Part shown: positions 11,975-30,816 of the stretch, piece after piece
How positions within the stretch are numbered: the stretch's first letter is position 1
Layout: each line of letters opens with the position of its first letter
Assembly (NCBI RefSeq): GCF_000022265.1
Contig: NC_011979.1
Coordinates: 4,050,001 to 4,082,000, forward strand
Direction: 5' to 3'
Source: Geotalea daltonii FRC-32
GTDB lineage: Bacteria; Desulfobacterota; Desulfuromonadia; Geobacterales; Geobacteraceae
Length of the DNA: 32,000 bases
The notes under the pieces: generated by a model
Database searches by the model: none
What the model saw: the letters and a program-made list of their open reading frames with translations, nothing else
What the model was told of the DNA's origin: nothing
Position numbers and translations under genes: made by a program

Positions 11975-12191
11975 AAATCTCCTTGAAGATAAACAGCAAT
12001 CAAGCTTATGTAACACAGCCGCGTGGTGAAATCAACCACGGCCATCAAGGGTTGAGGCTCTTCGAATCATTGGATGGCGGGCAGAAACATGATTAAGGGT
12101 ATACCTTTTTACAAAATTGTGCTATTCGTACCGACTTGTATCTGAAGGACAATTTGCAAAAACTAACGAGAAAAAAGGAGCATGGTGTGTA

Positions 12192-14258: not shown

Positions 14259-14283
14259 CCAGGCCCCAGATCAGATTCGATCC

Positions 14284-15270
14284 ATGAAAGTTTTCATCAC
14301 CGGAGCAACCGGTTTCATAGGCGCAAGCATCGTCAGGGAACTATTGAAGGACGGAGCTACAGTCAAGGCCCTGGCCAGGGCAGGCTCCGACCGCAGCAAC
14401 ATCAATGGGCTCGACGTTGAAATATGCGAGGGGGATCTCTGTACCCCTGAGTCCCTGGAAAAGGGCATCAGGGGCTGCGATATGGTTTTCCATGCCGCAG
14501 CCGACTACCGGCTATGGACGAAAAAACCGTCGCAGATGTACGAAATCAACGTAAACGGCACCCGTAATGTCCTTGCTGCCGCACTCAAGGCCGAGGTTAG
14601 TAAGGTAGTTTACACCAGCAGCGTCGGCACCCTGGGCAATCCGGGCGATGGCAATCCGGGTAACGAGTCGACACCTGTAAGCCTTGTCGACATGGTCGGC
14701 CATTACAAGAAAAGCAAGTTTCTCGCCGAGCGGGAAGCGGAATCCTTCATCGCCAAGGGACTGCCGCTGGTCATCGTCAATCCGTCCACGCCGGTCGGCA
14801 GACTTGACATCAAACCGACCCCCACCGGCAAAATTATCGTCGATTTCCTCAACGGGAAAATGCCGGCATACCTGGATACCGGCCTCAACATTATTGACGT
14901 GGAAGATTGTGCCCGTGGCCATATCCTGGCTGCCCAAAAAGGGCGCATCGGCGAAAAATACGTCCTGGGCAACAAGAACCTGAGCCTGAAGCAAATATTC
15001 GCCTCGCTTGAGGAAATCACCAGGCTCCCGGCACCCAGGGTCAGACTCCCCTACTATCCCATTCTTTTTGCCGCGTACGCCAACGAGGCACTGGCGGCAT
15101 TGACCGGCAAGGAACCGCTTATACCTCTGGCCGGTGTGCAGATGGCACGCAAATTCATGTTCTTCGACTCTTCCAAGGCTGTAGAGGAACTGGGGCTGCC
15201 GCAGAATTCTGTAGCCGACGCCCTGGCAAAAGCAGTAGAATGGTTCCGGCTTGAAGGCTATGCCAGGTGA
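14284..15270 (+). CDS. hpnA: NAD-dependent epimerase/dehydratase, hopanoid-associated sugar epimerase HpnA-type
   Basis: A Rossmann motif sits at the N-terminus (MKVFITGATGFIGASIV), and the SDR catalytic YxxxK is present (YKKSK). It lies immediately downstream of shc. Confidence 0.75.
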   Translation: MKVFITGATGFIGASIVRELLKDGATVKALARAGSDRSNINGLDVEICEGDLCTPESLEKGIRGCDMVFHAAADYRLWTKKPSQMYEINVNGTRNVLAAALKAEVSKVVYTSSVGTLGNPGDGNPGNESTPVSLVDMVGHYKKSKFLAEREAESFIAKGLPLVIVNPSTPVGRLDIKPTPTGKIIVDFLNGKMPAYLDTGLNIIDVEDCARGHILAAQKGRIGEKYVLGNKNLSLKQIFASLEEITRLPAPRVRLPYYPILFAAYANEALAALTGKEPLIPLAGVQMARKFMFFDSSKAVEELGLPQNSVADALAKAVEWFRLEGYAR

Positions 15271-15275
15271 ACCCG

Positions 15276-15358
15276 GTTCGAAGTTCGAAGTTCTAAGTTC
15301 GAGATTGAAATTCGCCTTTAACATCGAACGCCGAACGTCGAACGTCGAACTTTCTTTT
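15276..15358 (+). terminator. Long imperfect hairpin built from heptad repeats, followed by a T-run (hpnA/dxs intergenic region)
   Basis: The left arm (15276-15302) is GTTCGAA GTTCGAA GTTCTAA GTTCGA. The right arm (15324-15350) is TCGAACG CCGAACG TCGAACG TCGAAC. The arms are complementary at 22 of 27 positions. The loop is about 21 nt, and TTTCTTTT follows. Confidence 0.45.
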
Positions 15359-15369
15359 AAGAGGTATGT

Positions 15370-17280
15370 ATGTCCAATATTCTCAACAGAATAAACAGCC
15401 CCGCAGACCTGAAAACGTTAAAAGAAGATGAACTGCTGCTGCTGGCCGGTGAAATCCGCCAGTTCCTTCTCGATACCGTTTCCAGGACCGGCGGGCATCT
15501 GGCTTCCAATCTGGGTTGCGTAGAACTGACCCTGGCACTGCATTACTGTTTCAACTCCCCAAGCGACAGCATCATCTGGGATGTAGGACATCAGGCCTAT
15601 ACCCATAAAATCCTCACCGGCCGCAGGGATGTTTTCCATACCCAGCGCCAATATCAGGGCATCAGCGGTTTTCCCAAGCGCTCCGAATCTGCTCACGATG
15701 CCTTCGGCGCCGGCCATTCGTCCACCTCCATTTCAGCCGGCCTTGGCATGGCAGTGGCCAACTGCCTGAAAGGCGATCCAAGCAAGGTCATTGCCGTTAT
15801 CGGTGACGGCAGCCTCACCGGCGGCATGGCCTTCGAAGCCCTCAACCAGGCAGGGCACCTGCGCAAGAACCTGGTGGTGGTCCTCAACGACAATGAGATG
15901 TCCATTTCGAAAAACGTCGGCGCCCTCTCCACCTTCATTTCGCGCAAGCTGACCGGCAATTACTATCGCGACCTGAAAAAGGAGATGCAGAGGCTGTTGC
16001 AGAATATCCCCGCCATCGGCGGCAACATCCTCCATTTTGCCCGCAAAGCGGAAAACTCCCTCAAAGGATTCCTCACCCCCGGCACCCTCTTTGAAGCCCT
16101 CGGCTTCGAATACATCGGACCGGTACACGGCCACGACCTGCCCCAGCTGATCGAAATCATGCAAAACGTGCGGTCACTGGAAGGGCCGGTCCTGGTCCAT
16201 GTGGTTACCACCAAGGGAAAAGGTTACCAGCCGGCTGAAGACACCCCCGATAAATTCCACGGCGTCGGCCCATTCGACATCAAGACCGGCAAGGTCACCG
16301 GAGGCAAACCGGGAGCTGCGTCTTACACCGGTATTTTCGGCGATACCCTCTGCAAGCTTGCCGAAGAGGATGAAAAGATCGTCGCCATCACCGCCGCCAT
16401 GCCTGACGGCACCGGTTTGACCAAATTTTCAAGGACTTTTCCCGACCGCTTTTTCGATGTGGGCATCGCTGAGCAGCATGCCCTCACCTTTGCCGCAGGG
16501 ATGGCCACGGAGGGGTTCCGCCCGGTGGCCGCCATCTATTCCACCTTTGCCCAGCGCGCCTACGACCAGATCTTTCACGATATCTGCCTGCAGAAGCTGC
16601 CAGTGACGCTGGCCCTGGACCGGGCAGGCCTGGTGGGAGACGATGGTCCGACCCATCACGGGGTCTTTGATCTTTCCTATCTGCGTCACCTGCCGGAGAT
16701 GACGGTAATGGCGCCAAAGGATGAGAATGAGCTGCAGCACATGCTGAAGACCGCCATTTATTCAGACCAGCCCATCGCCCTGCGCTACCCCCGTGGTGCC
16801 GGTTACGGCGTTGCCATGGACTCTATCCTCAAAACCATTCCCCTGGGGGTGGCGGAACAGCTGGCCAAAGGGGAGGATATCACCCTCATTGCCATCGGTA
16901 GCACTGTTTATCCGGCCATGGAAGCGGCTGAACAGCTGAAGGCAAAGGGAATCAAGGCCTGTGTCATCAACGCCCGCTTCGTCAAACCCCTTGACCGCAA
17001 CCTGATCCTCTCCGCTGCCGGTCGTAGCGGCTGCGTCGTCACCGTAGAAGAAAATGCCCTCCAGGGAGGCTTCGGCACAGCGATAATGGAGCTCTTGTCC
17101 GATGAAGGCGCCGGCATCAAGGTAAAAAGAATCGGCATCCCCGACCGCTTCATCGAACAGGGGAGCCAGGCCCAGCTAAGAAAAGATCTGGGACTCGATG
17201 CTGCCGGCATCGCCCAGGTTGCGGAAGATTTTCTCAAAACCGGCAATCAGATCCAGCCTGGCCTGGTCCGGGTAAAATAA
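15370..17280 (+). CDS. dxs: 1-deoxy-D-xylulose-5-phosphate synthase
   Basis: A 636 aa ORF with the typical Dxs N-terminus ([10 protein letters not shown]...LAGEIR), the GHLASNLG and [16 protein letters not shown] motifs, and the TPP-binding [21 protein letters not shown] lies upstream. Confidence 0.95.
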
Positions 17281-17323
17281 TCTCGTCAAGTTTTAAAACA
17301 GCATGTGCATGAAAGGATAGTTA

Positions 17324-18322
17324 ATGCGTTTTCCCCTGCGTCTCAATTACGATCTCACCAAATACATCGTTGCCAACAAAATGAATAAGGTTGACAAATA
17401 CCCGCTGGTGCTGATGCTTGAACCAACCCATCTCTGCAATCTGGCCTGCTCCGGCTGCGGCCGCATCCGCGAGTACGCCGACACCATCCAGGAGATGATG
17501 TCCCTGGAAGAATGCCTGAACTCGGTTGATGAATGCCCGGCCCCGGTTGTCACCGTCACCGGCGGCGAACCGTTCCTTTACCCGCATATCTTCGACCTTA
17601 TCGATGGGGTACTGAAGCGGGGCAAGCACATCTATCTCTGCACCAATGCCCTGCTGCTGGAAAAAGCCCTGGACAAGATGCGCCCCCACCCCAACTTCAC
17701 CCTCAACGTACACATGGACGGCATGGAAGAAACCCACGACCGCATCCTGGAGCGCAAAGGGACCTTCAAGACCGCCATCGAGGCCATCAAAAAGGCGAAG
17801 AAGCTCGGCTTCCGCGTCTGCACCAACACCACCATCTTCAAGGAAACTGACCTGGTGGAGATCGAAATGCTCTTCTCCAAACTGGAAGAGATCGGTGTCG
17901 ACGGTCTGCTGGTTGCACCGGGCTTCGGCTATGAGGCCGTTGGCGAGAAGCTCTTCCTGGAGCGGCGGGACATCGAAAAGAAATTCGAGCAGGTTTACGA
18001 AATGAGCAAGCGCTTCCGCTTCTTCTCAACCCCCATGTACCTGCGCTTCCTCAAGGGAGAAAAGAAGCTGGAATGCACCCCCTGGGGCAATCCTACCCGG
18101 AACACCCAGGGCTGGAAGGCCCCCTGCTATCTCATTACCGACGCCCACTACAAGAGTTTCAAAGAAATGATGGAAAAGACCGAATGGGAAAAATACGGCG
18201 TCGGCAAAGACCCCCGCTGCGCCCAATGCATGATGCACTGTGGCTTCGAACCGACGGTCGTTGGGGAGATTGGCAAAAGCTGGAAGGATATTTGGGAGAT
18301 GATTGTTTGGAACCTGACTTGA
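17324..18322 (+). CDS. hpnH: Radical SAM protein, adenosylhopane synthase HpnH-type
   Basis: It has the CxxxCxxC radical-SAM cluster motif (CNLACSGCGR), is about 330 aa, and sits in the shc-hpnA-dxs-hpnH context. Confidence 0.8.
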   Translation: MRFPLRLNYDLTKYIVANKMNKVDKYPLVLMLEPTHLCNLACSGCGRIREYADTIQEMMSLEECLNSVDECPAPVVTVTGGEPFLYPHIFDLIDGVLKRGKHIYLCTNALLLEKALDKMRPHPNFTLNVHMDGMEETHDRILERKGTFKTAIEAIKKAKKLGFRVCTNTTIFKETDLVEIEMLFSKLEEIGVDGLLVAPGFGYEAVGEKLFLERRDIEKKFEQVYEMSKRFRFFSTPMYLRFLKGEKKLECTPWGNPTRNTQGWKAPCYLITDAHYKSFKEMMEKTEWEKYGVGKDPRCAQCMMHCGFEPTVVGEIGKSWKDIWEMIVWNLT

Positions 18323-19214: not shown

Positions 19215-19937
19215 TTAGAGTTCTTTCGCTGCTATTCCATAACGACGGCAGATGGCATCGATGAGTTCGTCAAGTTGCCATTCACGCCGCCAATGCTGGT
19301 TCGCCCTTGTCAGCGCTTTATCTGCGAAACAATCATCACCAAGAATCCGTCCCTCGCATGTGCCACTATGGAATTCATTTCTTCTTCCCTCGGCAATGCC
19401 ATCTAAAAGAAACTGCCGATAATGCTGGATGGCCGCGTTGATTTCCCCCGAGAACAGGGCAAGTACCCATTCGGTCGTCAGCCACGGGAGCATCTCCTTG
19501 CCGAGATACGCATTATGACCGCTCCAGCGGTAGCCTTCAGGACATTCTGTCATTCCGGCCCGCACGGGGTTGAGATGGACATAACGGACGAGTTCGAGCA
19601 GGTAAGCGTCAGCATCCAACATGATTGCCTTGTAGCGTCCCTGGAAGAGATGCCCGGTGCGCCGGCGGGTGTAATTGATCCATCTGGTGTATTTAAGCGA
19701 CAGACTCTGCATGATACGCGAGAGGGGAATCTCTTCCACCTGCAAAATCAGATGGACATGGTTAGTCATACAGCAAAATCCGTGAATCCGGCAATGAAAT
19801 CGTTCTATTACTTCCTGCATGTGCAGATAGAAACGAAATCGGTCACGATCCTTGAAAAAGAGTGGTTCGCCGGCATTGCCACGCAGAATGACGTGGTAGA
19901 CAGCGCCGGGGTAATGTATGCGAGGTTTACGGGCCAT
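19215..19937 (-). CDS. HUH Y1 (REP-associated tyrosine / IS200-like) transposase, catalytic part, ending at a premature in-frame TAA
   Basis: The product starts MARKPRIHYPGAVYHVILRG. The HUH motif is TNHVHLIL and the catalytic Tyr context is GHLFQGRYKA. It aligns along its length with the 322 aa copy at 29789-30757. Confidence 0.75.
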   Translation of the reverse strand: MARKPRIHYPGAVYHVILRGNAGEPLFFKDRDRFRFYLHMQEVIERFHCRIHGFCCMTNHVHLILQVEEIPLSRIMQSLSLKYTRWINYTRRRTGHLFQGRYKAIMLDADAYLLELVRYVHLNPVRAGMTECPEGYRWSGHNAYLGKEMLPWLTTEWVLALFSGEINAAIQHYRQFLLDGIAEGRRNEFHSGTCEGRILGDDCFADKALTRANQHWRREWQLDELIDAICRRYGIAAKEL

Positions 19938-19972
19938 AAAGAAACAATATATCAAAATGTCCGAATGTCAAG

Positions 19973-20047
19973 CCTGACACCTACGGTTGGCCCTGACACC
20001 TACGGTTGGCCCTGACACCTACGGTTGGCCTGACACCTACGGTTGGC
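19973..20047. repeat. Tandem repeat array at the right flank of RAYT element 1 (4 copies)
   Basis: The array is 3 x CCTGACACCTACGGTTGGC (19 nt) plus one 18-nt copy. The CCTGACACC core is the outer 9 bp of the terminal repeat. The 10-nt spacer (TACGGTTGGC) differs from the spacer of the left array. Confidence 0.85.
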
Positions 20048-20369
20048 CGCAGAGTATGGACTTGTAGCGGTTCTGGAACAGATGGCCGCAGCGCTGATAT
20101 TTGCGATTAAAGTAAACGGCATAACCGGTCAGCAGACGGCGCATGGTTTCAGCAAGAGAAACTCTGGTCGGCATGAGAAGCAGATGTAAATGGTTTGACA
20201 TGAGCGCCCAAGCATAACACTTGGTGGCGCTTTTCGTGAGCAGGGCAGAAAGGCTTGCCACAAAACGTTCCTTGTCAGCATCTTCAGCGAAAATGTCACG
20301 GCGTTCGATCCCGCGAACAATGACGTGATGGAGGACGTCGGGTATGTCAAGACGTGGTTGGCGTGGCAT
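20048..20369 (-). pseudogene. RAYT copy 2, only the N-terminal ~107 codons (3'-truncated at the tandem array)
   Basis: The track ORF 20037-20369 gives MPRQPRLDIPDVLHHVIVRG...RYKSILC, identical to residues 1-107 of the 322 aa protein at 29789-30757. It then runs into array sequence (GQP, stop). Confidence 0.85.
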
Positions 20370-20404: not shown

Positions 20405-20443
20405 TAGTTAATTAGCAAGCAACGTCCCCCTAGCTCCCCCTAG
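20405..20443. repeat. Right terminal repeat of RAYT copy 2 plus a GTCCCC-box doublet
   Basis: TAGTTAATTAGCAAGCAACGTCCC (identical to 30793-30816) is followed by CCTAGCTCCCCCTAG. The box sequence is directly fused to Rhs-derived sequence at 20444. Confidence 0.7.
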
Positions 20444-20815
20444 AAGTAATCGATGCGGTTGCCCTGGGGAAAGATGATGTGGTCGATCTTGCTGATCGTC
20501 CCGCCGCAACTGGCACAGCCGACGGTGGTGTAGCCATACTCGGTGACTGCGGTGTCGCCGGGGGTCTTGATGGTGAGGACCCTGCCGACATTGTCGTAGG
20601 TGTAGGTTGTGGTATTGCCGTTGGGGTCGGTTATTCGGAGCAGCGCCGGGGCAGAAAGCTCCTCCACCTTCAAAAGTGGGTTTCGTGAGATCAATATTTC
20701 CATAAAAGTCCAATAAAGTGATTGGGTTAGACTCAACATAAATAAAGAGATTTACCCCTCCCATAAGCCCAATCGGGTCAGCTTGGATGTCCCCGTAGAG
20801 ATTTACGTCCCCGCC
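20440..20815 (-). pseudogene. Rhs scars: a core-end remnant joined out of frame to a ~200-bp YD-repeat fragment
   Basis: Frame A reads ...DPIGLMGGVNLFIYVESNPITLLDFYG (the Rhs core-end motif). Frame B reads ITDPNGNTTTYTYDNVGRVLTIKTPGDTAVTEYGYTTVGCASCGGTISKIDHIIFPQGNRIDYF, a near-copy of the large Rhs at about 27660-27860. There is no usable start, and the two frames differ. Confidence 0.7.
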
Positions 20816-20816
20816 C
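20787..20816. repeat. GTCCCC-box doublet (REP-like) directly after the CPBP stop codon
   Basis: ATGTCCCCGTAGAGATTTACGTCCCCGCCC. It has the same box and orientation as the copies at 20421, 24867, 25007 and 30809. Confidence 0.55.
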
Positions 20817-21467
20817 TTAAACCCAATTGGGGCCTTTTGTATGTAGGTATGTGATTAAAAACCACATGCAATTGTTGAAAATATGTGCTGCGATACTGCT
20901 CTTTATAGATTTCGATTTTTCAAAAGTGTAGGTATATACTATTCCCTGCAATGCGATATTACCTAAATTTGAATCTAGTGCATGAAATGCAACGAAAATG
21001 CTGTTTGAAATTATGAACGCAACACCTATTCCAAACTCATTTCTACTTATACTATACAAATAGTACCTAAATATAATTTCTTCTACCACTGGCGCAATAA
21101 TGCAACTAACCAACAAAAAAACAATTAGGCCAAACGTTGTATATTTCCTAAGATATGACAAATCATAACCAAAGCCAATCCAGTAATAGTTGATTGCATA
21201 CAGCACTATAAAAAATAATATAGCAGTAATTGCGTATTTGAACGATATTGGTTTGATTATAGTTTCTTTAAAACGTGTAGTATCTCTTTTATATATATAA
21301 AATATTACCGGTAAATATACCAAGATAACAGTAGATGAGTTATCAATATAGCCATTTGGAATCGACAACGTTAACAAAAAATAAACTACGAAGGACAGAA
21401 TTAGAATGACAATTATTCGTATAATTTCTGCCAAACTATTTGATTTTGTATACTTTGACATTTTCAT
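20817..21467 (-). CDS. CPBP family (CAAX protease / Abi) intramembrane metalloprotease in the immunity-gene position
   Basis: A 216 aa polytopic membrane protein with all three CPBP motifs: EEIIFR (EExxxR), FVAFH (FxxxH) and HIFNN (HxxxN). Its ATG overlaps the upstream Rhs stop as ATGA (21467-21464). It is strongly AT-rich compared with its neighbours. Confidence 0.85.
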   Translation of the reverse strand: MKMSKYTKSNSLAEIIRIIVILILSFVVYFLLTLSIPNGYIDNSSTVILVYLPVIFYIYKRDTTRFKETIIKPISFKYAITAILFFIVLYAINYYWIGFGYDLSYLRKYTTFGLIVFLLVSCIIAPVVEEIIFRYYLYSISRNEFGIGVAFIISNSIFVAFHALDSNLGNIALQGIVYTYTFEKSKSIKSSIAAHIFNNCMWFLITYLHTKGPNWV

Positions 21468-23623
21468 TGTAACATTTGCGGTTTTAATGGGTTTGGTGAC
21501 ATTGGGCTGTTGTATGGCGCTGGAGCCAAAGGGTTATATCCTTCCACAGGAGGAGAGGGCTTTTCCTTTTCTCGGCAAGCATTATCCTTCAGGTAATTGG
21601 AAACCTTTGCTGCTGTATCCAATGTTTTTCCTGGTTTAACTGTTGCGACCTTATATGCCGTAGCTTGGAGTGCTGGGAGGTATTGCAAGGTCGCCATAAG
21701 TCCTTCAGGATCAATAAAGTTAATAGGATTATTTTGAACGTAAGCGTATAGGTTTATCCCCCCTCTGAACCCGATGGGGTCCTTTTGGATATACCTCCCT
21801 ATACTCGGATTATAATCCCTGAAGTAATTGTAGTTCAGCCCTGATTCTTGGTCTGCATACTGGCCCGGAAACCTAAGGTTCAGAGTTCCTGCTCCCGTTA
21901 TTGCTGCGCTGTCCCCAAACGGCCTGCCTTCAATCTCCCATACCTTCGCTCCGCTTGCATCGGACATAATCAGTGGAGTGCCAAGATGGTCAGTATGGAT
22001 GTAGTTTGTGCCTGTTGCATTGATCTTCGCAACAGGCTCCCCGTTCAGATACACATACTCCGTCAATCCATCACTGGCATTTTCCACCAGCAGGCTGCCT
22101 GCCCGATCATAAATAAAATGGATTGTCGTGCCAACTGTTGTTTTCTTTACTCGTTCTCCACTGGCATTATAGACATAATCTCCTGTCTGAGTTGCCGCGG
22201 CTCGTATTAACCTCTGATTCTGGTTATAGGTGTAAGTGGTGGCATTATCAGCAATGCTGTTGCCGTTGGCATCGTAGTTGAGGCTGTTTGTGTTTGCGTC
22301 CGTTATGCCTGTTAGCCTATTGCTGCCGGGTTGATAGTTGTAGCTCGTCGTGGCGGTTCCATCCACCTGCGTTAAGCGATTCCCTACTCCGTCATATGTC
22401 CATGAAAGATTGCCCCAAGGCCCTGCTGCTGTTTTCAGCCTGTTTAGTGCATCGTAACTGTAGGTCTTGTTTTTGTTGTTGTCGAGGGTGTTGGTGATGC
22501 TGGTGATGTTGCTGTTGGCGTCAAAGCCGTATGTGAGGCTCTGCAAGGTTGCCGTAGCGATGCTCACAATCCTGTACTGGTTGTCGTAGCCGATAGTTCT
22601 GATGATGCCGTTACCATAGGTGACACTTGCGACCCCACCAAAGGGCTTGTAGGTGATGTTGCCGGCAAGGCTTGTGGTTACACCGCCAATGGTGCTGGTT
22701 ATACTGCTTACCAGGTCATTGGTGTAATTGTAGGTTATCACCCTGCCGCTCGGGTAGGTGATGGTTCTGGTGTTGCCGTTCATGTCGTAGGTGTACTGGG
22801 TGATGTAGGTAATGCCGTCTATGGTCTGGGTCTCTTTGGCGATCTGACCTTTTTTGGTGTATTCGTAGGTGGTGCTGCCGCTTTGATCGGTTACTACGCA
22901 CAGCCTCCCCTTGCCGTTTGGACAAGTGTCGTAGGTATAGGTGATGTCGGTATCTGTCGGATAGTCTGTTTTTGTAAGCCTGTTGGCTGCATCGTATTGG
23001 TAACCGATCGTCACGCCTTTTGCGTCGGTCCTGGTCCTGAGGTTGCCGGCAGGGTCGTAGGTGTAGGTGGTGGTGCCGGTATCGGGGGAGATGGTCTGGT
23101 AGAGCCTCCCTTTGTCGTCGTATTTGTAGACGGTGCTGTTGGTGTTGCCGTCGGTTACGGTGGTCAGGTTGTTGTTCGAGTTGTAATTGAAGGCGGTGGT
23201 GACAGTGCCCGGTTGAATGGTTGTGGTGAGCCGGCTCAGGGCATCGTATTGACTGGTGGTGATGTTTTGTTTCGGGTCTTTAAAGCTGGTCTGGTTGCCG
23301 AGGTTGTCGTAGGTGTACTGGCTGAAGGTGTTGTCTGGGTAGATGGTTTTTGTCATACGACTGAGGGCATCGTACTGGTAGCTGATGGTCTTTTGCAGGG
23401 TACCCGACGGATCTTTGGTCTCTTCCTTGAGTTGATTTCCTTCGCTGTCGTAGGTGTAGTTAATGCTGTTCCCCTGGTTGTCGGCAATTTTACTCAGGTT
23501 GCCCATATTGTCATAGAAGTAATCGATGCGGTTGCCCTGGGGGAAGATGATATGGTCGATCTTGCTGATCGTTCCGCCGCAACTGGCACAGCCGACGGTG
23601 GTGTAGCCATACTCGGTAGGCAA
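21464..23623 (-). CDS. 5'-truncated orphan Rhs/YD-repeat protein with the RHS core end and a 77-aa C-terminal tip
   Basis: It contains YD repeats (YxYDxxGN/R), the core end YIHTDHLGTP...DPIGFRGGINLYAYVQNNPINFIDPEGL, and then the tip MATLQYLPALQ...NPLKPQMLQ. There is no ATG; the track 'M' is a TTG. The sequence upstream is an out-of-frame junction. Confidence 0.8.
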   Translation of the reverse strand: MPTEYGYTTVGCASCGGTISKIDHIIFPQGNRIDYFYDNMGNLSKIADNQGNSINYTYDSEGNQLKEETKDPSGTLQKTISYQYDALSRMTKTIYPDNTFSQYTYDNLGNQTSFKDPKQNITTSQYDALSRLTTTIQPGTVTTAFNYNSNNNLTTVTDGNTNSTVYKYDDKGRLYQTISPDTGTTTYTYDPAGNLRTRTDAKGVTIGYQYDAANRLTKTDYPTDTDITYTYDTCPNGKGRLCVVTDQSGSTTYEYTKKGQIAKETQTIDGITYITQYTYDMNGNTRTITYPSGRVITYNYTNDLVSSITSTIGGVTTSLAGNITYKPFGGVASVTYGNGIIRTIGYDNQYRIVSIATATLQSLTYGFDANSNITSITNTLDNNKNKTYSYDALNRLKTAAGPWGNLSWTYDGVGNRLTQVDGTATTSYNYQPGSNRLTGITDANTNSLNYDANGNSIADNATTYTYNQNQRLIRAAATQTGDYVYNASGERVKKTTVGTTIHFIYDRAGSLLVENASDGLTEYVYLNGEPVAKINATGTNYIHTDHLGTPLIMSDASGAKVWEIEGRPFGDSAAITGAGTLNLRFPGQYADQESGLNYNYFRDYNPSIGRYIQKDPIGFRGGINLYAYVQNNPINFIDPEGLMATLQYLPALQATAYKVATVKPGKTLDTAAKVSNYLKDNACREKEKPSPPVEGYNPLAPAPYNSPMSPNPLKPQMLQ

Positions 23624-23653: not shown

Positions 23654-24109
23654 TCAGTGTTTAAAGATCAGATTATTAATAGAATCTTCAAAGCCCTTGA
23701 AATCCTCTGCATTGCCTGTGAACAATATTGTCGTGCTTTCTTTTGGAATTGAAATGTGAAGCAGCATCAAACTGGACGATTTCATTATTGTTGAAAGCAT
23801 TAAAATTTCTCGGCCTTGTTTTTCAACAATTTTTTCCTCTTTTATAGTTTCGTTTTCCTCGATGAATTTTTTATATTTTGTAAAAAATTCTGACTTTGGC
23901 ACAACCCTTTTATTAAAAAAAATGTTTGTGCCATTGGTTGGCAATTTAAGTACTAACAAACTGTTATCTTTATCATTCTTACTATTGTTAAAGGCCACTT
24001 TCATTACGATATTGTTATAAGAAATGATCTTATTATAATGATTAAAAGCCACTGAAGCTATTAAAACAATTACAATAGTTGCTGCAATAATTTGAATTTT
24101 TTTGCCCAT
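23654..24109 (-). CDS. Putative immunity protein (N-terminal membrane anchor, AT-rich)
   Basis: A 151 aa ORF that starts 10 nt after the stop of the Rhs tip at 24120. It has one N-terminal hydrophobic helix (IIAATIVIVLIASVAF). I do not recognise a family. The call rests on position and composition. Confidence 0.55.
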   Translation of the reverse strand: MGKKIQIIAATIVIVLIASVAFNHYNKIISYNNIVMKVAFNNSKNDKDNSLLVLKLPTNGTNIFFNKRVVPKSEFFTKYKKFIEENETIKEEKIVEKQGREILMLSTIMKSSSLMLLHISIPKESTTILFTGNAEDFKGFEDSINNLIFKH

Positions 24110-24119
24110 GAAGCGCCCC

Positions 24120-24674
24120 CTATTTACGGTACTTGCCTGTTACTGGCCCAGTTATGCTTGTGTTTGTAGGTGAGTTTCTTATTATATCCATTGTCTCTGG
24201 ATGCATTATTAGTTCTATTTCTTTCGCTGCCCAATCATGAATGATAGCTTCTTCAATCTTGCCTTTATCAAAAGCTTCCTCTCTTTTCCGTAATTGATAT
24301 TGCAAAATGTCTCTTGTATCTTGGGATTGCATATATGACCTCATAAACTTCAACAATCCTGTGGGATCAAGATCTAAACAATCTAACAAACCTAATGAAT
24401 CCACCTTATTTATCGGATTATTTTGGACATACGAATATAGGTTTATCCCTCCGGCTATACCTATTGGATCTTTTTGGATGTAGCGCCCAACGCTCGGATT
24501 GTAATCCCTGAAATAGTTGTAATGGTTCCCTGTCTCTGTATCAAAGTACTGGCCCGGAAACCTAAGGTTCAGCATTCCCGCTCCAGTTATTGCCGCATTG
24601 TCGCCAAATGGTCTGGCCTCAATCGCCCATACCTTGGCACCGCTTGCATCCGTCATCATCTGCGGTGTGCCCAA
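24120..24674 (-). CDS. Orphan Rhs core-end fragment with an 88-aa C-terminal tip
   Basis: The sequence ...HLGTPQMMTDASGAKVW...DPIGIAGGINLYSYVQNNPIN is nucleotide-identical to 25874-26188. It then reads KVDSLGL plus a unique tail, LDCLDLDPTG...GKYRK. There is no ATG; the track start is the TTG of HLG. Confidence 0.7.
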   Translation of the reverse strand: MGTPQMMTDASGAKVWAIEARPFGDNAAITGAGMLNLRFPGQYFDTETGNHYNYFRDYNPSVGRYIQKDPIGIAGGINLYSYVQNNPINKVDSLGLLDCLDLDPTGLLKFMRSYMQSQDTRDILQYQLRKREEAFDKGKIEEAIIHDWAAKEIELIMHPETMDIIRNSPTNTSITGPVTGKYRK

Positions 24675-25098: not shown

Positions 25099-25461
25099 CT
25101 ATGGGTTACCTCTAAATTTCCTTGTAATCCCTACTGAGGCCAAATACTTCTCATAAATATCTATTGCTTTTGAATCGCCATCAAACAAATCTTCATAAAA
25201 TCCAGGCTCGCTGAATTCAGGTGGATCTATATAATATTCATCAGCTTCATATTCTTTTCGAATCCATGATTGTGGAATTGATGAATCGATAATCTCAAAA
25301 AGATACTTAGGGTATAAAATTGGATCACCAACTTGATCAACTATTCTGAAACAATCATGATCAATTCCAATAACATCATAAGTTTCGTTTGGCTTAATGT
25401 TCTTATTGTCAAATTGATCTAATATATGGTTATGTACTTCTTGTTTTGCTTTGACTTTCAT
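25099..25461 (-). CDS. Putative cytoplasmic immunity protein (acidic, about 120 aa)
   Basis: It lies downstream of the large Rhs tip. The start was set at MKVKAKQE because AGGAG lies 11 nt upstream; the track ORF starts at 25512. It is AT-rich with no TM segment. I cannot assign a family. Confidence 0.55.
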   Translation of the reverse strand: MKVKAKQEVHNHILDQFDNKNIKPNETYDVIGIDHDCFRIVDQVGDPILYPKYLFEIIDSSIPQSWIRKEYEADEYYIDPPEFSEPGFYEDLFDGDSKAIDIYEKYLASVGITRKFRGNP

Positions 25462-25521
25462 AAAAATATATTCTCCTATGAAAAATAAAGACGCAAGGCA
25501 TAATAATAGCATACCATTTGT

Positions 25522-28500
25522 TTAAAATGGATCTGGTGATCCGGCTGGTTTTTTACCCACTTTGTTCCCATTATTCTCATACCAGTGCCATTCTTTACCA
25601 AATTCATCCCATCCTTTTTTCTTCAACCAATCTTTAGCTTTACCTCCAAATTTCTCAACAAGCTCATCGACCTTTCTGATATTTCTTCCTTTAGCTATTA
25701 TCTCAGATGAGCTCAGTATGCTTTTGGTAAATTTTTCAGTCATACCAATAGGCAGAAGGTTTTCTAAGACTTGTTGAAGTGTTTCTCTGTCCTTGTCATC
25801 GCAAGGCTTATACTCTCTTGCCCGCTTTAACAGATCGCTATACGGAGAAAGACCCTCCGGATCAACCCAGTTAATCGGATTATTTTGGACATACGAATAT
25901 AGGTTTATCCCTCCGGCTATACCTATTGGATCTTTTTGGATGTAGCGCCCAACGCTCGGATTGTAATCCCTGAAATAGTTGTAATGGTTCCCTGTCTCTG
26001 TATCAAAGTACTGGCCCGGAAACCTAAGGTTCAGCATTCCCGCTCCAGTTATTGCCGCATTGTCGCCAAATGGTCTGGCCTCAATCGCCCATACCTTGGC
26101 ACCGCTTGCATCCGTCATCATCTGCGGTGTGCCCAAATGATCGGTGTGAATGTAGCTTGTGCCTGTTGCATCTATCTTCGCAACAGGCTCCCCGTTCAGA
26201 TAGACATATTCCGTCAATCCATCACTGGCGTTTTCAATAAGCAGGCTGCCTGCCCGATCATAAACGAAATGGGTTGTCGTTCCAACCGTTGTTTTCTTTA
26301 CTCTTTCGCCACTGGCATTATAGGCGTAATCCCCGGTCTGGATCGCAGCGGCTCTTATCAGTCGTTGGTTCTGATTATAAGTGTAGGTGGTGGCGTTGTC
26401 GGTAACGGTGTTGCCGTTGGCGTCGTAAGCGAAACTGGAGGTGGTAGCTCCTGTGATGCCGGTAAGCTTGTTGCTCCCCGGCTGGTAAACATAGCTGCTT
26501 GTGCCCACACTATCCACCTGCGTCAGCCGATTCCCCACGGGGTCATAGGTCCATAGCATGTTCCCCCATGTGCCTGTGGCGCTGCTCAGCCTGTTCAGAG
26601 CATCGTAACTGTAGCTCTTGTTTTTCGTATTGTCGAGGGTGTTGGTTATGCTGGTGATGTTGCTGTTTGCGTCAAAGCCATACGATAAGCTCTGGATAGT
26701 TCCTGTGGTAGTGCTGGCAATCCTGTACTGATTGTCGTAGTTAATGGTTCTTGGTAAGGCGTTACCATAGGTCAGGCTTGCCAGTCCTCCAAAAGGTTTA
26801 TAGGCGATGTTGCCGGCAAGGGTTGTAGTAACGCCGCCAATGGTGCTGGTCATACTTGTTACCCGGTCATTGGTGTAGTTGTAGGTTATCACCCTGCCGC
26901 TCGGGTAGGTAATGGTTCTGGTGTTGCCGTTCATGTCGTAGGTGTACTGGGTGATGTAAGGGATGCCGTCTATGGTCTGGTTCTCTTTGGCAATCTGAAC
27001 TTTTTTGGTGTACTCATAGCTGGTTGTTCCGCTTTGATCGGCAACGGCACAGAGCCTTCCCTTACCGTTGACGCAGTTATCGTAGGTATAGGTGATGTCG
27101 GTATCTGTCGGATAGTCTGTTTTTGTAAGCCTGTTGGCGGCATCGTAGGTATAGGCTATGGTAATTCCCTTTGCATCGGTCTTGGTCTTGAGATTGCCGG
27201 CAGGGTCATAGGTATAGGTGGTGGCGCCGGTATCGGGGGAGATGGTCTGGTAGACCCTGCCCTTGTCGTCGTATTTGTAGACGGTGCTGTTGGTGTTGCC
27301 GTCGGTTACGGTGGTCAGGTTGTTGTTTGAGTTGTAATTGAAGCCGGTGGTGATATTGCCCGGTTGAATGGTGGCGGTGAGCCGGCTTAAGGAGTCGTAC
27401 TGGCTGGTGGTGATGTTTTGTTTCGGGTCTTTGAAACTGGTCTGGTTGCCGAGGTTGTCGTAGGTGTACTGGCTGAAGGTGTTATCGGGGTAGATGGTTT
27501 TTGTCAGGCGACTGAGGGCATCGTACTGGTAGCTGATGGTTTTTTGCAGGATGCCGGTTGGGTCTTTGATCTCTTCCTTGAGCTGATTTCCTTCGCTGTC
27601 GTAGGTGTAGTTGATGCTGTTCCCCTGGGTGTCGGCAATTTTACTCAGGTTGCCCATACTGTCATAGAAGTAATCGATGCGGTTGCCCTGGGGGAAGATG
27701 ATATGGTCGATCTTGCTGATCGTTCCGCCGCAACTGGCACAGCCGACGGTGGTGTAGCCGTATTCGGTGACTGCGGTATCGCCGGGGGCTTTTATGGTGA
27801 GGACCCTGCCCACATTGTCGTAGGTGTAGGTTGTGGTATTGCCGTTGGGGTCGGTTATGGTGCCGGGATTGCCGAGGCCGTCGTAGTTGGCATAGGTGGT
27901 TGTGCCGATCAGCGGCTCGGTCATGGTGAGCCGATTGCTGGTGACGGGATCGTAGGTGAAGGTGGTGACGTCTTCAACATCAGTGCGGGGGCCGTCGATT
28001 CTCGTGACGTGACCGTGGATGTCGTATTCATAGGAGGTAGTATAGGTGTAAGAGGTTCCATCCCCTGAAAGACCGGTCTCGGTACTGCTGCTGACATTGC
28101 CGGTCCCGTCATAGGCATAGGTAAGCACCGAGTCTTGCAATGGGTTCACCGCACTTTTCATGGTTTTGGTGACCAGCCTTCCGAAGGTTGGATGGTAGGT
28201 GTAACTGGCGGTCTTTGCCACGGCACTGCCAGAGCCCCTGGTCTCGGTGAGGATATTCCCTTTGTCATCGTAGGTGAAATCATTGGCGGTTTTGAGAACC
28301 AGATTGGGAGTGGCTGGTGTACCGGTGTTCTCCCAATATTCTTCCCTGAGAATCCAGGTTTTGTCATTTCGGGTATACCTGGTTTCGTTGCCGAAGGTAT
28401 CGGTTACTTTGCTGGGCTGGCCTTGATCGTCGAACTCGACGGTGCGGGTCTGGGTGTTGAGAACTGCGCCGGCCGGGTCTTTGATTGTGGTGGTTATCTG

Positions 28501-28737
28501 GGTCTTTTTGCCGGGGGTGATGTAGTTGAAATCAATGGTACCGTTGCCATGGGACTGCTTGGTCACTCTCCCCGCGGCGCTGCCGGTATTGACAAAGGCT
28601 CCTCCTCCTTCATCAACGCTGGTCATAAGGTGCTTGTTGTTTGGATCGGTATAGGAATAGGCAGCGCGTAGCAAAGGGGTAGTTACGGCTGTCAGGTTTC
28701 CGAATGCATCGTGATCGTAGGTAACGGTTCGTCCCAA
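25522..28737 (-). CDS. Large 5'-truncated Rhs/YD-repeat protein with the RHS core end and a 108-aa C-terminal tip
   Basis: It has more than 40 YD-type repeats and the core end YIHTDHLGTP...DPIGIAGGINLYSYVQNNPINWVDPEGL, followed by a basic tail. The frame is open to about 28854, with no ATG and only a TTG at 28737. It begins about 20 nt after the CPBP stop, so the N-terminal delivery region is missing. Confidence 0.85.
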   Translation of the reverse strand: MGRTVTYDHDAFGNLTAVTTPLLRAAYSYTDPNNKHLMTSVDEGGGAFVNTGSAAGRVTKQSHGNGTIDFNYITPGKKTQITTTIKDPAGAVLNTQTRTVEFDDQGQPSKVTDTFGNETRYTRNDKTWILREEYWENTGTPATPNLVLKTANDFTYDDKGNILTETRGSGSAVAKTASYTYHPTFGRLVTKTMKSAVNPLQDSVLTYAYDGTGNVSSSTETGLSGDGTSYTYTTSYEYDIHGHVTRIDGPRTDVEDVTTFTYDPVTSNRLTMTEPLIGTTTYANYDGLGNPGTITDPNGNTTTYTYDNVGRVLTIKAPGDTAVTEYGYTTVGCASCGGTISKIDHIIFPQGNRIDYFYDSMGNLSKIADTQGNSINYTYDSEGNQLKEEIKDPTGILQKTISYQYDALSRLTKTIYPDNTFSQYTYDNLGNQTSFKDPKQNITTSQYDSLSRLTATIQPGNITTGFNYNSNNNLTTVTDGNTNSTVYKYDDKGRVYQTISPDTGATTYTYDPAGNLKTKTDAKGITIAYTYDAANRLTKTDYPTDTDITYTYDNCVNGKGRLCAVADQSGTTSYEYTKKVQIAKENQTIDGIPYITQYTYDMNGNTRTITYPSGRVITYNYTNDRVTSMTSTIGGVTTTLAGNIAYKPFGGLASLTYGNALPRTINYDNQYRIASTTTGTIQSLSYGFDANSNITSITNTLDNTKNKSYSYDALNRLSSATGTWGNMLWTYDPVGNRLTQVDSVGTSSYVYQPGSNKLTGITGATTSSFAYDANGNTVTDNATTYTYNQNQRLIRAAAIQTGDYAYNASGERVKKTTVGTTTHFVYDRAGSLLIENASDGLTEYVYLNGEPVAKIDATGTSYIHTDHLGTPQMMTDASGAKVWAIEARPFGDNAAITGAGMLNLRFPGQYFDTETGNHYNYFRDYNPSVGRYIQKDPIGIAGGINLYSYVQNNPINWVDPEGLSPYSDLLKRAREYKPCDDKDRETLQQVLENLLPIGMTEKFTKSILSSSEIIAKGRNIRKVDELVEKFGGKAKDWLKKKGWDEFGKEWHWYENNGNKVGKKPAGSPDPF

Positions 28738-28874: not shown

Positions 28875-29525
28875 TTAAGACCATAGAAATGTCAATAAAA
28901 ACCACAGGCTATTATTATACATATGCAGTATTATGCTGCATTTAATGGAATTAGATATTTCAAAAAATACAGTATATATAATCCCTTGAATCAATATATC
29001 TAACATGTTAGCCGATTGATATATATGCATTCCGGCAAATAATAAAACGGATACCAATATTCCAGGGACAAGACCGTATTTAGTTTTAATTATGCCATAA
29101 TAATAGCACCTGAATAATATTTCTTCTAGTAAAGGAATGATAAAACAAGCAATCAGTAAGTAAGCAAACTTTGATACTGTGTTCATTTCATATAATTTTA
29201 GAAATACTTCGGAAACATTATTATTTTTCAACCAGAAATAATAAGGAATAAAGAGGATAGTAATTATGATATTCCCAACTACTAGATATTTCAAATGAGT
29301 TCGCTTGCTTATTGCGGCAGTCAATGTGGTTGGTGCTTTTAAATGTAGATATAAAATTGCTGCAATGTACATTAGAACAATCATCAAATTGTGGATAATT
29401 GAGGTATCAGAAATATTCGTTACAAATATGACATAAAATAAAAATACTATGAACATTATAAAGCTTGATACAAAAATATCAGAAACCGTAATAATATTAT
29501 ATGCTTGAAGTGTTACTTTGTTCAT
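28875..29525 (-). CDS. CPBP family (CAAX protease / Abi) intramembrane metalloprotease, second paralog, in the immunity-gene position
   Basis: A 216 aa ORF with the motifs EEILFR, FAGMH and HMYNN. It shares blocks with the 20817-21467 protein (IQGI.YT..FE.S.SIK.SI..H..NN..WFL.T.L). Its ATG lies 1 nt after the TAA of the upstream tip remnant. It is very AT-rich. Confidence 0.85.
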   Translation of the reverse strand: MNKVTLQAYNIITVSDIFVSSFIMFIVFLFYVIFVTNISDTSIIHNLMIVLMYIAAILYLHLKAPTTLTAAISKRTHLKYLVVGNIIITILFIPYYFWLKNNNVSEVFLKLYEMNTVSKFAYLLIACFIIPLLEEILFRCYYYGIIKTKYGLVPGILVSVLLFAGMHIYQSANMLDILIQGIIYTVFFEISNSIKCSIILHMYNNSLWFLLTFLWS

Positions 29526-29526
29526 A

Positions 29527-29749
29527 TTATTGGTTATCCACCTTAATTGTTATGGGAGGAGCTACTGGCTCACCTGTCAATGGGTTTACTGTCATTGTGC
29601 AAAAAAACTTTACTTTGTCTTTTAACTGCTCAAGAGTTTTTTTAGCTTGCTTGGCTGCTTCGTCTTTGACAGGCATGCCAGGACTTTTATTTCCGAGATC
29701 ATATAGTTTCGGGTCCTTGGGAGGGTCCTTGGGAGGGTCCTTGGGAGGG
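29527..29749 (-). pseudogene. Remnant of an Rhs C-terminal tip (Pro-rich linker plus about 60 aa), 5'-truncated by RAYT element 3
   Basis: Hand translation gives (NNV)PPKDPPKDPPKDPKLYDLGNKSPGMPVKDEAAKQAKKTLEQLKDKVKFFCTMTVNPLTGEPVAPPITIKVDNQ, then a stop. The 3 x 12-nt repeat GGGTCCTTGGGA (29711-29746) is the in-frame PPKD linker. There is no start codon. Confidence 0.6.
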
Positions 29750-30816
29750 ACGTTGTTAGCTAATCAACTAACTGCCTCCCCTTCAATTTTATATCCCCAG
29801 CTCCGGGTAACTCTTCAATAACTCCGCTCCCCGTCTGGCCGCTATAGACGCGCCTGCCGAGCCGATCCCTACGACCTTCCCGGCCTCTGTGCCCGTATAG
29901 CCATACTCACGTACTGCCAAGTAGCAGAAGATAGCTTTTGCCCGTGCTACGGCGCGCTCTTTGCCGGGACACTGCATTCGGTCTGCAACCACTCCGGTCA
30001 CGGCACAGACTCTGTCTAGCAATTCAACCAAGGCAAGACGTGGTTTATTCTTCTCCACCACGCTGGCCCCCTGGGTCAACTTTTCCACAAACCCGCCACT
30101 GCCAAGGATTCGCTCATCAAAGGCGGCTATTTCTTTGATCTCCATGCAATCGGGCTGGCTGCGCTTAAGTCCGCCCCCGACCAGATCCTGGCGATGTCCT
30201 GTGGTAATTCCATCGGCGACGAACTGCCAATAGCCACGAACTGCGCGTGCCCTGGTATTTCCAAAACGTGTCAGTACCTCGTCCGTCTCCTGACCTTCCA
30301 TGGCCCGCTTACCGAGTAATACTGCATGGCCACTCCACGGGTAGCTTCCCAGTTCATTCATATCGGAAACCATGCCCGCTCGTAGCGGGTTCAAATGGAT
30401 ATAGCGCACAAGTTCGAGAAAGTAAGGATCCTCCTCGCAGAGTATGGACTTGTAGCGGTTCTGGAACAGATGGCCGCAGCGCTGATATTTGCGATTAAAG
30501 TAAACGGCATAACCGGTCAGCAGACGGCGCATGGTTTCAGCAAGAGAAACTCTGGTCGGCATGAGAAGCAGATGTAAATGGTTTGACATGAGCGCCCAAG
30601 CATAACACTTGGTGGCGCTTTTCGTGAGCAGGGCAGAAAGGCTTGCCACAAAACGTTCCTTGTCAGCATCTTCAGCGAAAATGTCACGGCGTTCGATCCC
30701 GCGAACAATGACGTGATGGAGGACGTCGGGTATGTCAAGACGTGGTTGGCGTGGCATGAGCGCAAGCTAACATAAGTATTGCTCAGTGACAATAGTTAAT
30801 TAGCAAGCAACGTCCC
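29747..30816 (-). mobile_element. RAYT / IS200-like Y1 transposase element 3 with 24-bp imperfect terminal inverted repeats
   Basis: The left end, GGGACGTTGTTAGCTAATCAACTA (29747-29770), matches the right end, TAGTTAATTAGCAAGCAACGTCCC (30793-30816), at 21 of 24 positions in inverted orientation. Confidence 0.7.
29789..30757 (-). CDS. HUH Y1 (REP-associated tyrosine / IS200-like) transposase with a C-terminal DnaA_C-like HTH domain, intact
   Basis: A 322 aa ORF starting MPRQPRLDIPDVLHHVIVRG. The HUH motif is SNHLHLLL and the Tyr context is GHLFQNRYKS. The C-terminal RAVARAKAIFCYLAVREYGYTGTEAGKVVGIGSAGASIAARRG resembles the DnaA C-terminal HTH. Confidence 0.85.
   Translation of the reverse strand: MPRQPRLDIPDVLHHVIVRGIERRDIFAEDADKERFVASLSALLTKSATKCYAWALMSNHLHLLLMPTRVSLAETMRRLLTGYAVYFNRKYQRCGHLFQNRYKSILCEEDPYFLELVRYIHLNPLRAGMVSDMNELGSYPWSGHAVLLGKRAMEGQETDEVLTRFGNTRARAVRGYWQFVADGITTGHRQDLVGGGLKRSQPDCMEIKEIAAFDERILGSGGFVEKLTQGASVVEKNKPRLALVELLDRVCAVTGVVADRMQCPGKERAVARAKAIFCYLAVREYGYTGTEAGKVVGIGSAGASIAARRGAELLKSYPELGI

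Follow-up and report, generated by a model that had tools for sequence, protein, structure and literature searches.

The DNA analysed here (the window) is a 32,000-nucleotide (nt) stretch of the Geotalea daltonii FRC-32 genome (contig NC_011979.1, positions 4,050,001 to 4,082,000), in which the region from 18.4 to 32 kb is occupied by a minus-strand array of Rhs C-terminal modules. One of these, designated module 1, consists of an orphan Rhs core fragment, a 77-residue C-terminal tip (tip 1), and a gene encoding a member of the Rce1-like/CPBP/Abi family (CPBP1) that begins at the end of the tip (Table 1). Tip 1 belongs to a small protein family under purifying selection, each member of which is followed by an orthologue of CPBP1 in which the three active site motifs of the family are intact. 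On balance, module 1 is probably a toxin-immunity cassette in which the tip would be neutralised through proteolysis by the CPBP; toxicity, immunity, proteolysis, and the cellular compartment in which they would take place are what we infer from these observations.

Anatomy of Module 1

The minus-strand open reading frame (ORF) at 21464..23623 encodes 719 amino acids (aa) and comprises the Rhs core fragment and tip 1. Eight RHS_repeat matches (PF05593, E 4e-48) and an RHS domain (PF03527) were identified with Pfam, and the NCBIfam model for the RHS-associated core, TIGR03696 (Rhs_assc_core), matches residues 568-642 with an E-value of 5.8e-28. The core terminates in ...NNPINFIDPEGL, and its last residues before tip 1 read ...YVQNNPINFIDPEGL. 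The ORF begins within the repeats, with an N-terminal secretion or delivery domain absent from the fragment. Alignment with the 1071-aa Rhs ORF at 25522..28737 reveals 83% identity through the core to the DPEGL motif and no relationship beyond it. Four Rhs core ends in the window can be aligned in this manner, with similarity stopping exactly at the tip boundaries at 21698, 24387, 25849, and 31666 (repeat family D1). No N-terminal domain is found on any Rhs ORF within the window, the copy beginning at 31438 continuing past the window end, and module 1 is therefore considered a displaced orphan cassette.

The tip comprises the 77 residues following DPEGL, with a sequence identical to that quoted in the initial annotation, and the overlap of its TGA stop codon with the ATG of CPBP1 as ATGA (21467-21464), also reported there, is real. 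On the basis of this overlap the two genes had been described as translationally coupled. This applies to the window copy, to which the ATGA overlap is unique, but not to the other loci carrying the pair, where the tip and CPBP genes are separated by gaps of 7, 8, 19-20, or 35 nt. CPBP1 sits in the slot that is taken by small AT-rich genes behind two other tips of the array (encoding proteins of 137 and 151 aa), and the CPBP genes share the foreign composition of these genes. The guanine plus cytosine (GC) content is 30% for CPBP1, 28% for the second CPBP gene of the array (CPBP2), and 29-31% for the 137- and 151-aa genes, whereas the Rhs cores have 51-52% and the housekeeping part of the window 55%; a 112-aa gene behind a further tip has a GC content of 42.5%.

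Directly after CPBP1 lies a degenerate double Rhs core end that is a recombination scar. It overlaps the 3′ end of CPBP1 and supplies its last 5-6 codons (KGPNWV), and the C-terminus of CPBP1 exceeds that of its orthologues by 5-6 residues.

A Conserved Tip Family

Relatives were sought with a word-index search of 5.8e9 proteins, HMMER over 1.84e9 cluster representatives, and a scan of 241 million metagenome records. The word-index search from the tip yielded one relative, P0001, at 71% identity; HMMER returned P0001, P0008, and one marginal YD-repeat protein (P0009) and nothing else; the metagenome record scan returned one contig. Searches from CPBP1 identified P0003, P0005, P0006, and P0007/P0013 together with the two CPBPs of the window, and nothing else at E<=1e-8. 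Six distinct tips are present across the searched data, namely those of the window, L001 (P0001), L014, L002, L004 (identical to L007), and L006, carried by Geobacter-type genomes or by unassigned metagenomic contigs. They fall into two clades, with the window, L001, and L014 in clade 1 and L002, L004, and L006 in clade 2.

Tip 1 and its relatives form a genuine protein family on which purifying selection acts. The ratio of nonsynonymous to synonymous substitution rates (dN/dS) is 0.15-0.23 in the nine of ten pairs for which dS could be estimated, including unsaturated pairs (dS 0.38-0.61). Tip lengths are 75 or 77 residues, differing by a single two-residue indel after residue 1, beside the predicted cleavage site; the position of the stop codon is identical in all copies and no frame disruptions are present. 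Invariant positions number 32 of 77 and include YLPA, AT..PG.T, NY.K.NA.R, EGYNP, and the C-terminal PQ, the invariant residues being mainly Tyr, Pro, Asn, Thr, Lys, and Gly. The family keeps its C-terminus as (K/R)PQ(M/L)x(Q/R), with the window copy ending in ...KPQMLQ. Proline accounts for 16-17% of tip residues, and 10 of the 12 prolines in the window copy are located in residues 46-77. No His, Cys, or Asp is conserved in the tip family, the single Cys of the window copy being replaced by Asn in clade 2, which makes an enzymatic toxin less likely and favours a peptide that acts by binding.

An AlphaFold2 (AF2) model of the tip, built from a shallow alignment and of low confidence (pLDDT, the predicted score in a local distance difference test, of 53.6), places helices at residues 7-18 and 28-40, with the tail disordered beyond residue 43. 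A transmembrane segment is absent from the tip, whose Kyte-Doolittle (KD) hydropathy reaches at most 0.61 over 19 residues and whose net charge is +2 to +4. Two classes of peptide were considered for it and set aside. A membrane-active amphipathic peptide is not supported, the hydrophobic moment not exceeding that of shuffled sequences and a transmembrane segment being absent, and a cationic proline-rich antimicrobial peptide of the apidaecin/oncocin type is unlikely, the proline-rich tail being nearly neutral and not Arg-rich.

Linkage of Tip and CPBP

All six tips follow an Rhs core end of the form ..NNPxNxxDP(E/T)GL and have a CPBP orthologue within 35 nt downstream; conversely, a tip homologue precedes every close CPBP1 relative that was found. 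The distance from the tip stop codon to the CPBP start is 19 nt in L001, behind an Rhs stub ending in ..FYVYVQNNPINFIDPTGL, and likewise 19 nt in L014, behind the stub VIVQNNPVNFVDPEGL. It is 7 nt in L002, where an Rhs core end lies upstream, 8 nt in L006, again behind an Rhs stub, and 35 nt in the lineage represented by L003, L004, L005, L007, and L010, in which the upstream gene is a full-length Rhs. These observations support tip and CPBP as a genuine co-inherited unit.

The lineage with the full-length Rhs corresponds to the metagenome-assembled genome (MAG) 'Geobacter sp.' isolate H2geo and to GCA_003575145.1. The Rhs protein of L004/L007 is 1539-1575 aa in length and has a signal-peptide-like N-terminus (MLLLLAIIFVACPNSFA), a DUF6531 domain, 14 YD-repeat matches, and the tip as its terminus, followed by the CPBP. 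It is the putative deployed form of the tip. Downstream of the Rhs-tip-CPBP genes in this locus, a transposase helix-turn-helix fragment and a gene for a Tle1-like phospholipase (PF09994, E 1.4e-79) were identified (L004:10795-12090), which suggests an effector island, possibly linked to a type VI secretion system (T6SS).

Pairwise identities of tips and of CPBPs correlate with r = 0.90 (10 non-independent pairs), and the CPBPs diverge somewhat faster than the tips, as in the comparison of the window with L014, where the CPBPs are 53% and the tips 73% identical. The pair also behaves as a cassette. L006:300-640 and L014:7400-7750 share 88% identity over the 320 nt that precede the Rhs stub of 15 residues, whereas the tips and CPBPs of these two loci belong to different clades, with amino acid identities of 51% and 49%, respectively. 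Such shared flanks around cargo of different clades point to an exchange of cassettes at the core end, where VQNNPxN is conserved. An insertion sequence (IS) or repetitive extragenic palindromic (REP) element at the L006/L014 cassette junctions was considered and rejected, the sole similarity to the window being Rhs core-end DNA.

CPBP Genes Behind Unrelated Tips

A second CPBP gene, CPBP2, occupies the position behind the tip in module 2 of the same array. CPBP2 is 30-32% identical to CPBP1 (BLASTP E 2e-30) and its motifs, EEILFR, FAGMH, and HMYNN, are intact. The tip remnant preceding it is small and contains proline (translation ...PPKDPPKDPPKDPKLYDLGNKSPGMPVKDEAAKQAKKTLEQLKDKVKFFCTMTVNPLTGEPVAPPITIKVDNQ*). 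Homology between tip 1 and this remnant was rejected; a MAFFT alignment gives 22% identity, but hhalign returns an E-value of 0.25 over 9 columns. Where the remnant meets the end of the IS (29711-29749), a 12-nt unit (GGGTCCTTGGGA on the positive strand) occurs in 3.2 perfect tandem copies, which encode PPKD repeats.

A third tip type is found in a Chitinophaga MAG (L008), where an orphan Rhs core end (TIGR03696 E 4.8e-14; ...YQFASNTPIMAIDLDGL) carries a coiled-coil-rich tip of ~225 aa that is unrelated to tip 1. A CPBP gene lies 84 nt downstream (PF02517 E 4e-20), and its product has the same invariant residues. The genome scan with the CPBP profile also matched a Neobacillus protein, an ordinary CPBP with no toxin context. 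Glycine-zipper-like stretches were observed in two Rhs tips, L014:243-1070 (KWAVPAAIIGGAAAGGWYLY) and L008:8499-9515 (FAGAGVIGATIY), and are reminiscent of membrane-permeabilising glycine-zipper toxins; only that of L008 is paired with a CPBP.

If PF02517 genes are assumed to make up about 0.1-0.3% of a genome, the occurrence of two CPBPs in the five post-tip positions of one array is very unlikely to be due to chance (p < 1e-4). This frequency bears on a reading in which the tip is the decayed remnant or linker of a larger toxin domain and the CPBP a mere passenger. The small size of the tip, the predicted disorder of its second half, its lack of a domain match, and its location in an IS-ridden array of orphan fragments would all suit such a remnant, as would the marginal HMMER match of tip residues 26-65 to the 224-aa YD-repeat protein P0009 (E 5e-4; NYLKDNACRE..PPVEG in the tip, TYLYDNAGRE..PPVET in P0009). 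A degenerate YD repeat might, on the strength of this match, be the ancestor of the tip; no other Rhs protein matched, and the match is probably due to chance. A decayed sequence is, however, difficult to reconcile with six independent copies that keep their stop and length, with the invariant positions and low dN/dS described above, with a copy that ends a full-length Rhs, or with a CPBP partner in six of six cases that diverges in step with the tip. Together with the recurrence of CPBPs in the array, these properties make a remnant very improbable.

CPBP1 and the Role of Its Active Site

CPBP1 matches PF02517 (Rce1-like/CPBP/Abi) over profile positions 3-93 of 93 (E 1.9e-18; score 66.9 bits, cutoff 22.4), and is 100% identical to a protein annotated as 'protease, Abi superfamily, putative [Geotalea daltonii FRC-32]'. 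The three active site motifs noted in the initial annotation are all present, namely EEIIFR at residues 129-134 (EExxxR), FVAFH at 158-162 (FxxxH), and HIFNN at 195-199 (HxxxN). Residues E129, E130, R134, H162, H195, and N199 are invariant in seven sequences, including CPBP2 and the Chitinophaga CPBP, at identities from 79% down to 26%. The AF2 model of CPBP1 (pLDDT 75, predicted template modelling score (pTM) 0.77) is all-helical with nine helices. A sequence search of the PDB gave no match, and the best fold match of the model was 6u0o_A (probability 0.97, but with a weak E-value of 0.17 and TM-score of 0.46), an entry for the SagB-SpdC complex in which we take this chain to be the CPBP subunit SpdC. 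A phage-defence 'Abi' function for CPBP1 was rejected for lack of a PADLOC match, and a tblastn search found no CPBP1 on plasmids.

The invariance of the three motifs down to 26-30% identity, across three unrelated tip types, favours neutralisation of the tip by cleavage. Immunity might also be conferred by a CPBP that does not cut the tip and instead sequesters it at the membrane, keeps it from being taken up or translocated through the inner membrane, or shields its membrane target. All of the evidence for tip-CPBP linkage fits this mode of immunity equally well, and SpdC offers a precedent for binding. SpdC with SagB (6u0o) is the only bacterial CPBP with a solved complex, and it acts by partner binding and is not known to be an active protease. 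Binding or exclusion is also in keeping with the suggestion made for the two-transmembrane Imm-CdiI and Imm17 in the 2012 polymorphic toxin catalogue (PMC3482391). The invariant motifs, in CPBP2 and the Chitinophaga protein as well, speak for selection on catalysis, however, and this makes immunity without proteolysis unlikely. Non-catalytic CPBPs such as SpdC have lost these catalytic residues.

Catalysis could equally serve the producer, with the CPBP acting as a processing, maturation, or sorting protease that trims the C-terminal tail of the tip or releases an active peptide. CPBP1 fits no curated NCBIfam equivalog; its nearest models are the ABC-permease/CPBP fusion, MrtJ, MrtS, PEP-CTERM CAAX, and MroQ, and it is the place of MrtJ, MrtS, and the PEP-CTERM CAAX proteases directly after the fusion that would suit such a function. 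All of these models score far below their cutoffs, however (31.1 bits against 75 for MrtJ; 28.6 against 130 for MrtS). The conservation of the extreme C-terminus of the tip would also be expected of a processed substrate, with Rce1-type enzymes cutting near C-termini and 'bacteriocin-processing' CPBPs as a model, but the tip has neither a transmembrane helix nor a basic C-terminal cluster, and Rhs proteins free their tips by their own aspartyl autoproteolysis. Precedents for processing do exist. The CPBP myxosortase removes a C-terminal tag by cleavage (PMC11980579), and PrsW, a distant CPBP relative, is proposed in the 2012 catalogue to process polymorphic toxins, one of them with RHS repeats (PMC3482391). 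A C-terminal sorting tag was rejected for the tip, in which the transmembrane helix of such tags is missing. Furthermore, if the CPBP were a maturase, the loci of the relatives would offer no other conserved gene beside the pair as a candidate for immunity. An intact CPBP ORF also persists in orphan cassettes, and in module 2 it does so despite the IS that interrupts the tip. This retention fits immunity better, but only weakly, because the 100%-identical IS copies in the array suggest a recent insertion. Taken together, a role for the CPBP in maturation is improbable, slightly more so than immunity by binding.

Proposed Mechanism

In the toxin-immunity reading of module 1, the Rhs shell would self-cleave after DPEGL and free the 77-residue tip as cargo; autoproteolysis at the core end is established for the RHS-associated core domain. 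The tip would be a non-enzymatic cargo composed of two short helices and a Pro- and Tyr-rich disordered tail that is kept to the last residue, and may harm the recipient by binding and blocking a target rather than by catalysis. The CPBP/Abi protein, a putative glutamic protease of the inner membrane, would act as the cognate immunity protein and most likely neutralise the tip by cleavage at the membrane. The G. daltonii tip is probably a stored, undeployed variant, and its CPBP could still protect the cell from relatives that deploy the tip, such as the Geobacter MAG described above. Whether the same would hold more widely, with Rhs shells delivering non-enzymatic, proline-rich inhibitory peptides that are disarmed catalytically by a dedicated intramembrane CPBP in recipients or producers, is a more doubtful proposition, and is put forward tentatively.

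Several findings weigh against toxicity of the tip and its neutralisation by proteolysis. In agreement with the initial annotation, in which no toxin motif was seen, the tip has no Pfam match at E<=1, no PADLOC match, and no sequence relative in the PDB (best E 0.034), and its structural model is of low confidence. No significant amphipathic helix is present, the maximum hydrophobic moment being reached in 69-350 of 1000 shuffles, which makes it difficult to see how a soluble peptide would meet an intramembrane active site. The active site of CPBP1 is predicted to face the cytoplasm, a crude prediction from the positive-inside rule and from analogy with the Rce1 structure. In G. daltonii the cassette is an orphan behind a 5′-truncated Rhs fragment, in which no evident start, promoter, or Shine-Dalgarno sequence was found for CPBP1. 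The family is tiny, its six sequences being too few for an analysis of residue-by-residue co-variation. Finally, typical immunity proteins of polymorphic toxins are described as small, cytoplasmic, globular, and non-enzymatic by Zhang et al. 2012 (PMC3482391), by which a CPBP would be an atypical immunity protein.

Comparison with Known Systems

Rhs/YD-repeat systems with orphan C-terminal toxin-immunity cassettes were reportedly described by Jackson in 2009 and by Koskiniemi in 2013. As in other Rhs polymorphic toxins, the core of module 1 ends in DPxGL, the variable tip starts at this point, and a small AT-rich gene comes next; displaced orphan cassettes, shared core-end homology, cassette exchange, and a full-length version in a relative are likewise common to both. 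By its sequence, module 1 thus appears to agree with Rhs polymorphic toxins in every architectural feature that can be tested. It differs from typical Rhs cassettes in its tip, which is only 77 aa in length, bears no enzymatic signature, and is half disordered, and in CPBP1, which, unlike the products of typical Rhs immunity genes, is a membrane enzyme of 7-8 helices.

A functional parallel may be found in the class IIb bacteriocins. These are free peptides of 25-60 aa with double-glycine leaders; ABC transporters export them, and they attack the membrane from its outer side. The conserved motifs are said to be needed for Abi immunity, as Kjos et al. reportedly found in 2010. Sakacin 23K and plantaricins EF and JK are countered by the Abi-family immunity proteins SkkI, PlnI, and PlnL, for which degradation of the bacteriocin is still only a suggested mechanism (PMC8538875). 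Module 1 has in common with these systems a PF02517 protein with the same three motifs, encoded beside a small ribosomally made peptide toxin (putatively so in module 1). The peptide of module 1 is, however, the C-terminal cargo of a ~1500-aa Rhs shell in Gram-negative Geobacter, and, unlike class IIb peptides, it lacks a leader as well as any hydrophobic or significantly amphipathic segment; there is no sequence relationship beyond the family level, and no ABC exporter is present in the tip-CPBP loci. Module 1 is not a member of the class IIb Abi systems and by analogy may function like them.

CPBP sorting proteases such as the myxosortase MrtX, which acts on MYXO-CTERM proteins, resemble module 1 in that a CPBP is paired with a secreted protein whose C-terminal sequence is conserved. 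Their sorting signals consist of a signature motif, a transmembrane helix, and a basic C-terminal cluster, and few bacterial CPBPs have a known substrate (PMC11980579). In contrast to MYXO-CTERM, JDVT-CTERM, and Synerg-CTERM proteins, the tip carries no such tripartite tag with an Arg-rich end. CPBP1 scores below the NCBIfam cutoffs for CPBP sorting proteases, including MrtJ, MrtS, and Mrt_core, and whereas each sorting protease serves many substrates, the pairing in module 1 is one-to-one and moves as a cassette. Module 1 does not belong to the CPBP sorting systems. The polymorphic toxins fused to PrsW, as described by Zhang et al. 2012, similarly tie a membrane peptidase to toxins, in one case through RHS repeats. 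PrsW is, however, an N-terminal fusion proposed to release the toxin, mostly in Gram-positive bacteria, whereas the CPBP of module 1 is encoded by a separate gene in the immunity position.

The statement in the initial annotation that CPBPs are not a standard catalogued partner of Rhs tips agrees with the available portion of the 2012 catalogue, where CPBP is absent from the immunity families and is mentioned just as a distant relative of PrsW (PMC3482391). A full-text literature search, with most subscription journals outside its coverage, found no paper proposing CPBP as an immunity protein for Rhs, T6SS, or polymorphic toxins. The delivery scaffold and the immunity-protein family are each known, and their combination and the type of cargo were not found described. 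If the proposed function is correct, module 1 would, to our knowledge, represent the first class of polymorphic toxin immunity that is both enzymatic and embedded in the membrane, and the polymorphic toxin field would gain a cargo without an enzymatic fold as well. It would also establish a mechanistic link between Abi immunity in Gram-positive bacteriocin systems and the contact-dependent or secreted Rhs weapons of Gram-negative bacteria and Bacteroidota, and provide a defined peptide substrate for a bacterial CPBP, opening the Abi mechanism to in vitro testing. The co-diverging pair of a soluble 77-residue peptide and a motif-intact CPBP is a compact and tractable system for this purpose, its impact being limited by the extreme rarity of the tip family. 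In the T6SS loci of Morganella, surveyed in 2026, four CPBP genes were placed without interpretation among the 'miscellaneous' proteins of effector regions (PMC13129497). CPBP genes filed in this manner in T6SS or Rhs effector regions may be overlooked immunity genes.

The Surrounding Rhs Array

The coordinates of module 1 and of the other modules and mobile elements in the array are given in Table 1. From position alone, the AT-rich 137- and 151-aa genes are read as putative immunity genes; neither these nor the 112-aa gene behind a further tip has a Pfam match.

Table 1. Features of the Rhs array in the G. daltonii FRC-32 window, ordered by position.
Feature	Position	Strand	Size	Description
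Third IS200-like Y1 transposase gene	19215-19955	−		
Truncated IS200-like copy	20037-20369	−	110-aa ORF	Downstream of module 1
Degenerate double Rhs core-end scar	20700..20835	−		Translation DPIGFKGGDVNLYGDIQADPIGLMGGVNLFIYVESNPITLLDFYG; directly after CPBP1, opens the next IS-truncated orphan fragment
CPBP1 (module 1)	20817..21467	−	216 aa	ATG 21467-21465; PF02517; proposed cognate immunity protein
Tip 1 (module 1)	21464..21697	−	77 codons (21697-21467)	First ATG 21697-21695; stop TGA 21466-21464
Orphan Rhs core fragment (module 1)	21698..23623	−	642 aa	YD repeats and RHS-associated core domain; terminus DPEGL
Rhs stub of conventional orphan module	24387-24674	−		Followed by tip (24120-24386), then 151-aa gene (23654-24109)
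Rhs of conventional orphan module	25849-28737	−		Followed by tip (25522-25848), then 137-aa gene (25099-25512)
CPBP2 (module 2)	28875..29525	−	216 aa	PF02517, E 2.3e-17, 63.5 bits
Module-2 tip remnant	29527..29763	−		In frame; ends 1 nt before the CPBP2 ATG; 5′ side cut by IS200-like element
IS200-like Y1 transposase	29789..30757	−	322 aa	PF01797, E 3.7e-12; intact; inserted upstream of module 2

Two of the IS200-like copies share a segment of 300 nt, 20048-20347 being 100% identical to 30436-30735, and IS insertions truncate two parts of the array, the tip of module 2 and an Rhs fragment located at 20440-20739. This pattern suggests that recent IS activity is remodelling the array.

In the Rhs tip at 31438-31665 on the minus strand, a long polyproline linker (PLPKPPPTIPTIPPPPRPPIKPPKPP) leads into a hydrophobic C-terminus of 45 residues that is rich in cysteine (7 Cys, maximum KD 1.72). 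This tip resembles a small peptide cargo of a membrane-inserting or disulfide-rich kind. It is followed by the 112-aa ORF at 31098-31436 (minus strand), which contains one hydrophobic stretch; no Pfam match was found for the tip either. The array may be specialised in peptide-like tips.

The rest of the window is made up of housekeeping genes, including that for elongation factor G (EF-G). Genes for a squalene-hopene cyclase, an NAD-dependent epimerase-family protein, a 1-deoxy-D-xylulose 5-phosphate (DXP) synthase, and a radical-SAM/DUF3463 protein are found together on the positive strand at 12117-18322 in what looks like a hopanoid or isoprenoid cluster. As this cluster adjoins the low-GC Rhs array, the boundary of the array is placed near 18.4-19.2 kb. 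Short contigs identical to modules 1 and 2 are also present in three Logan assemblies (L011, L012, and L013; SRR9436587, SRR9436588, and SRR29904083), where they break at repeats or IS elements; if any of these data sets is RNA-seq, the orphan modules are transcribed.

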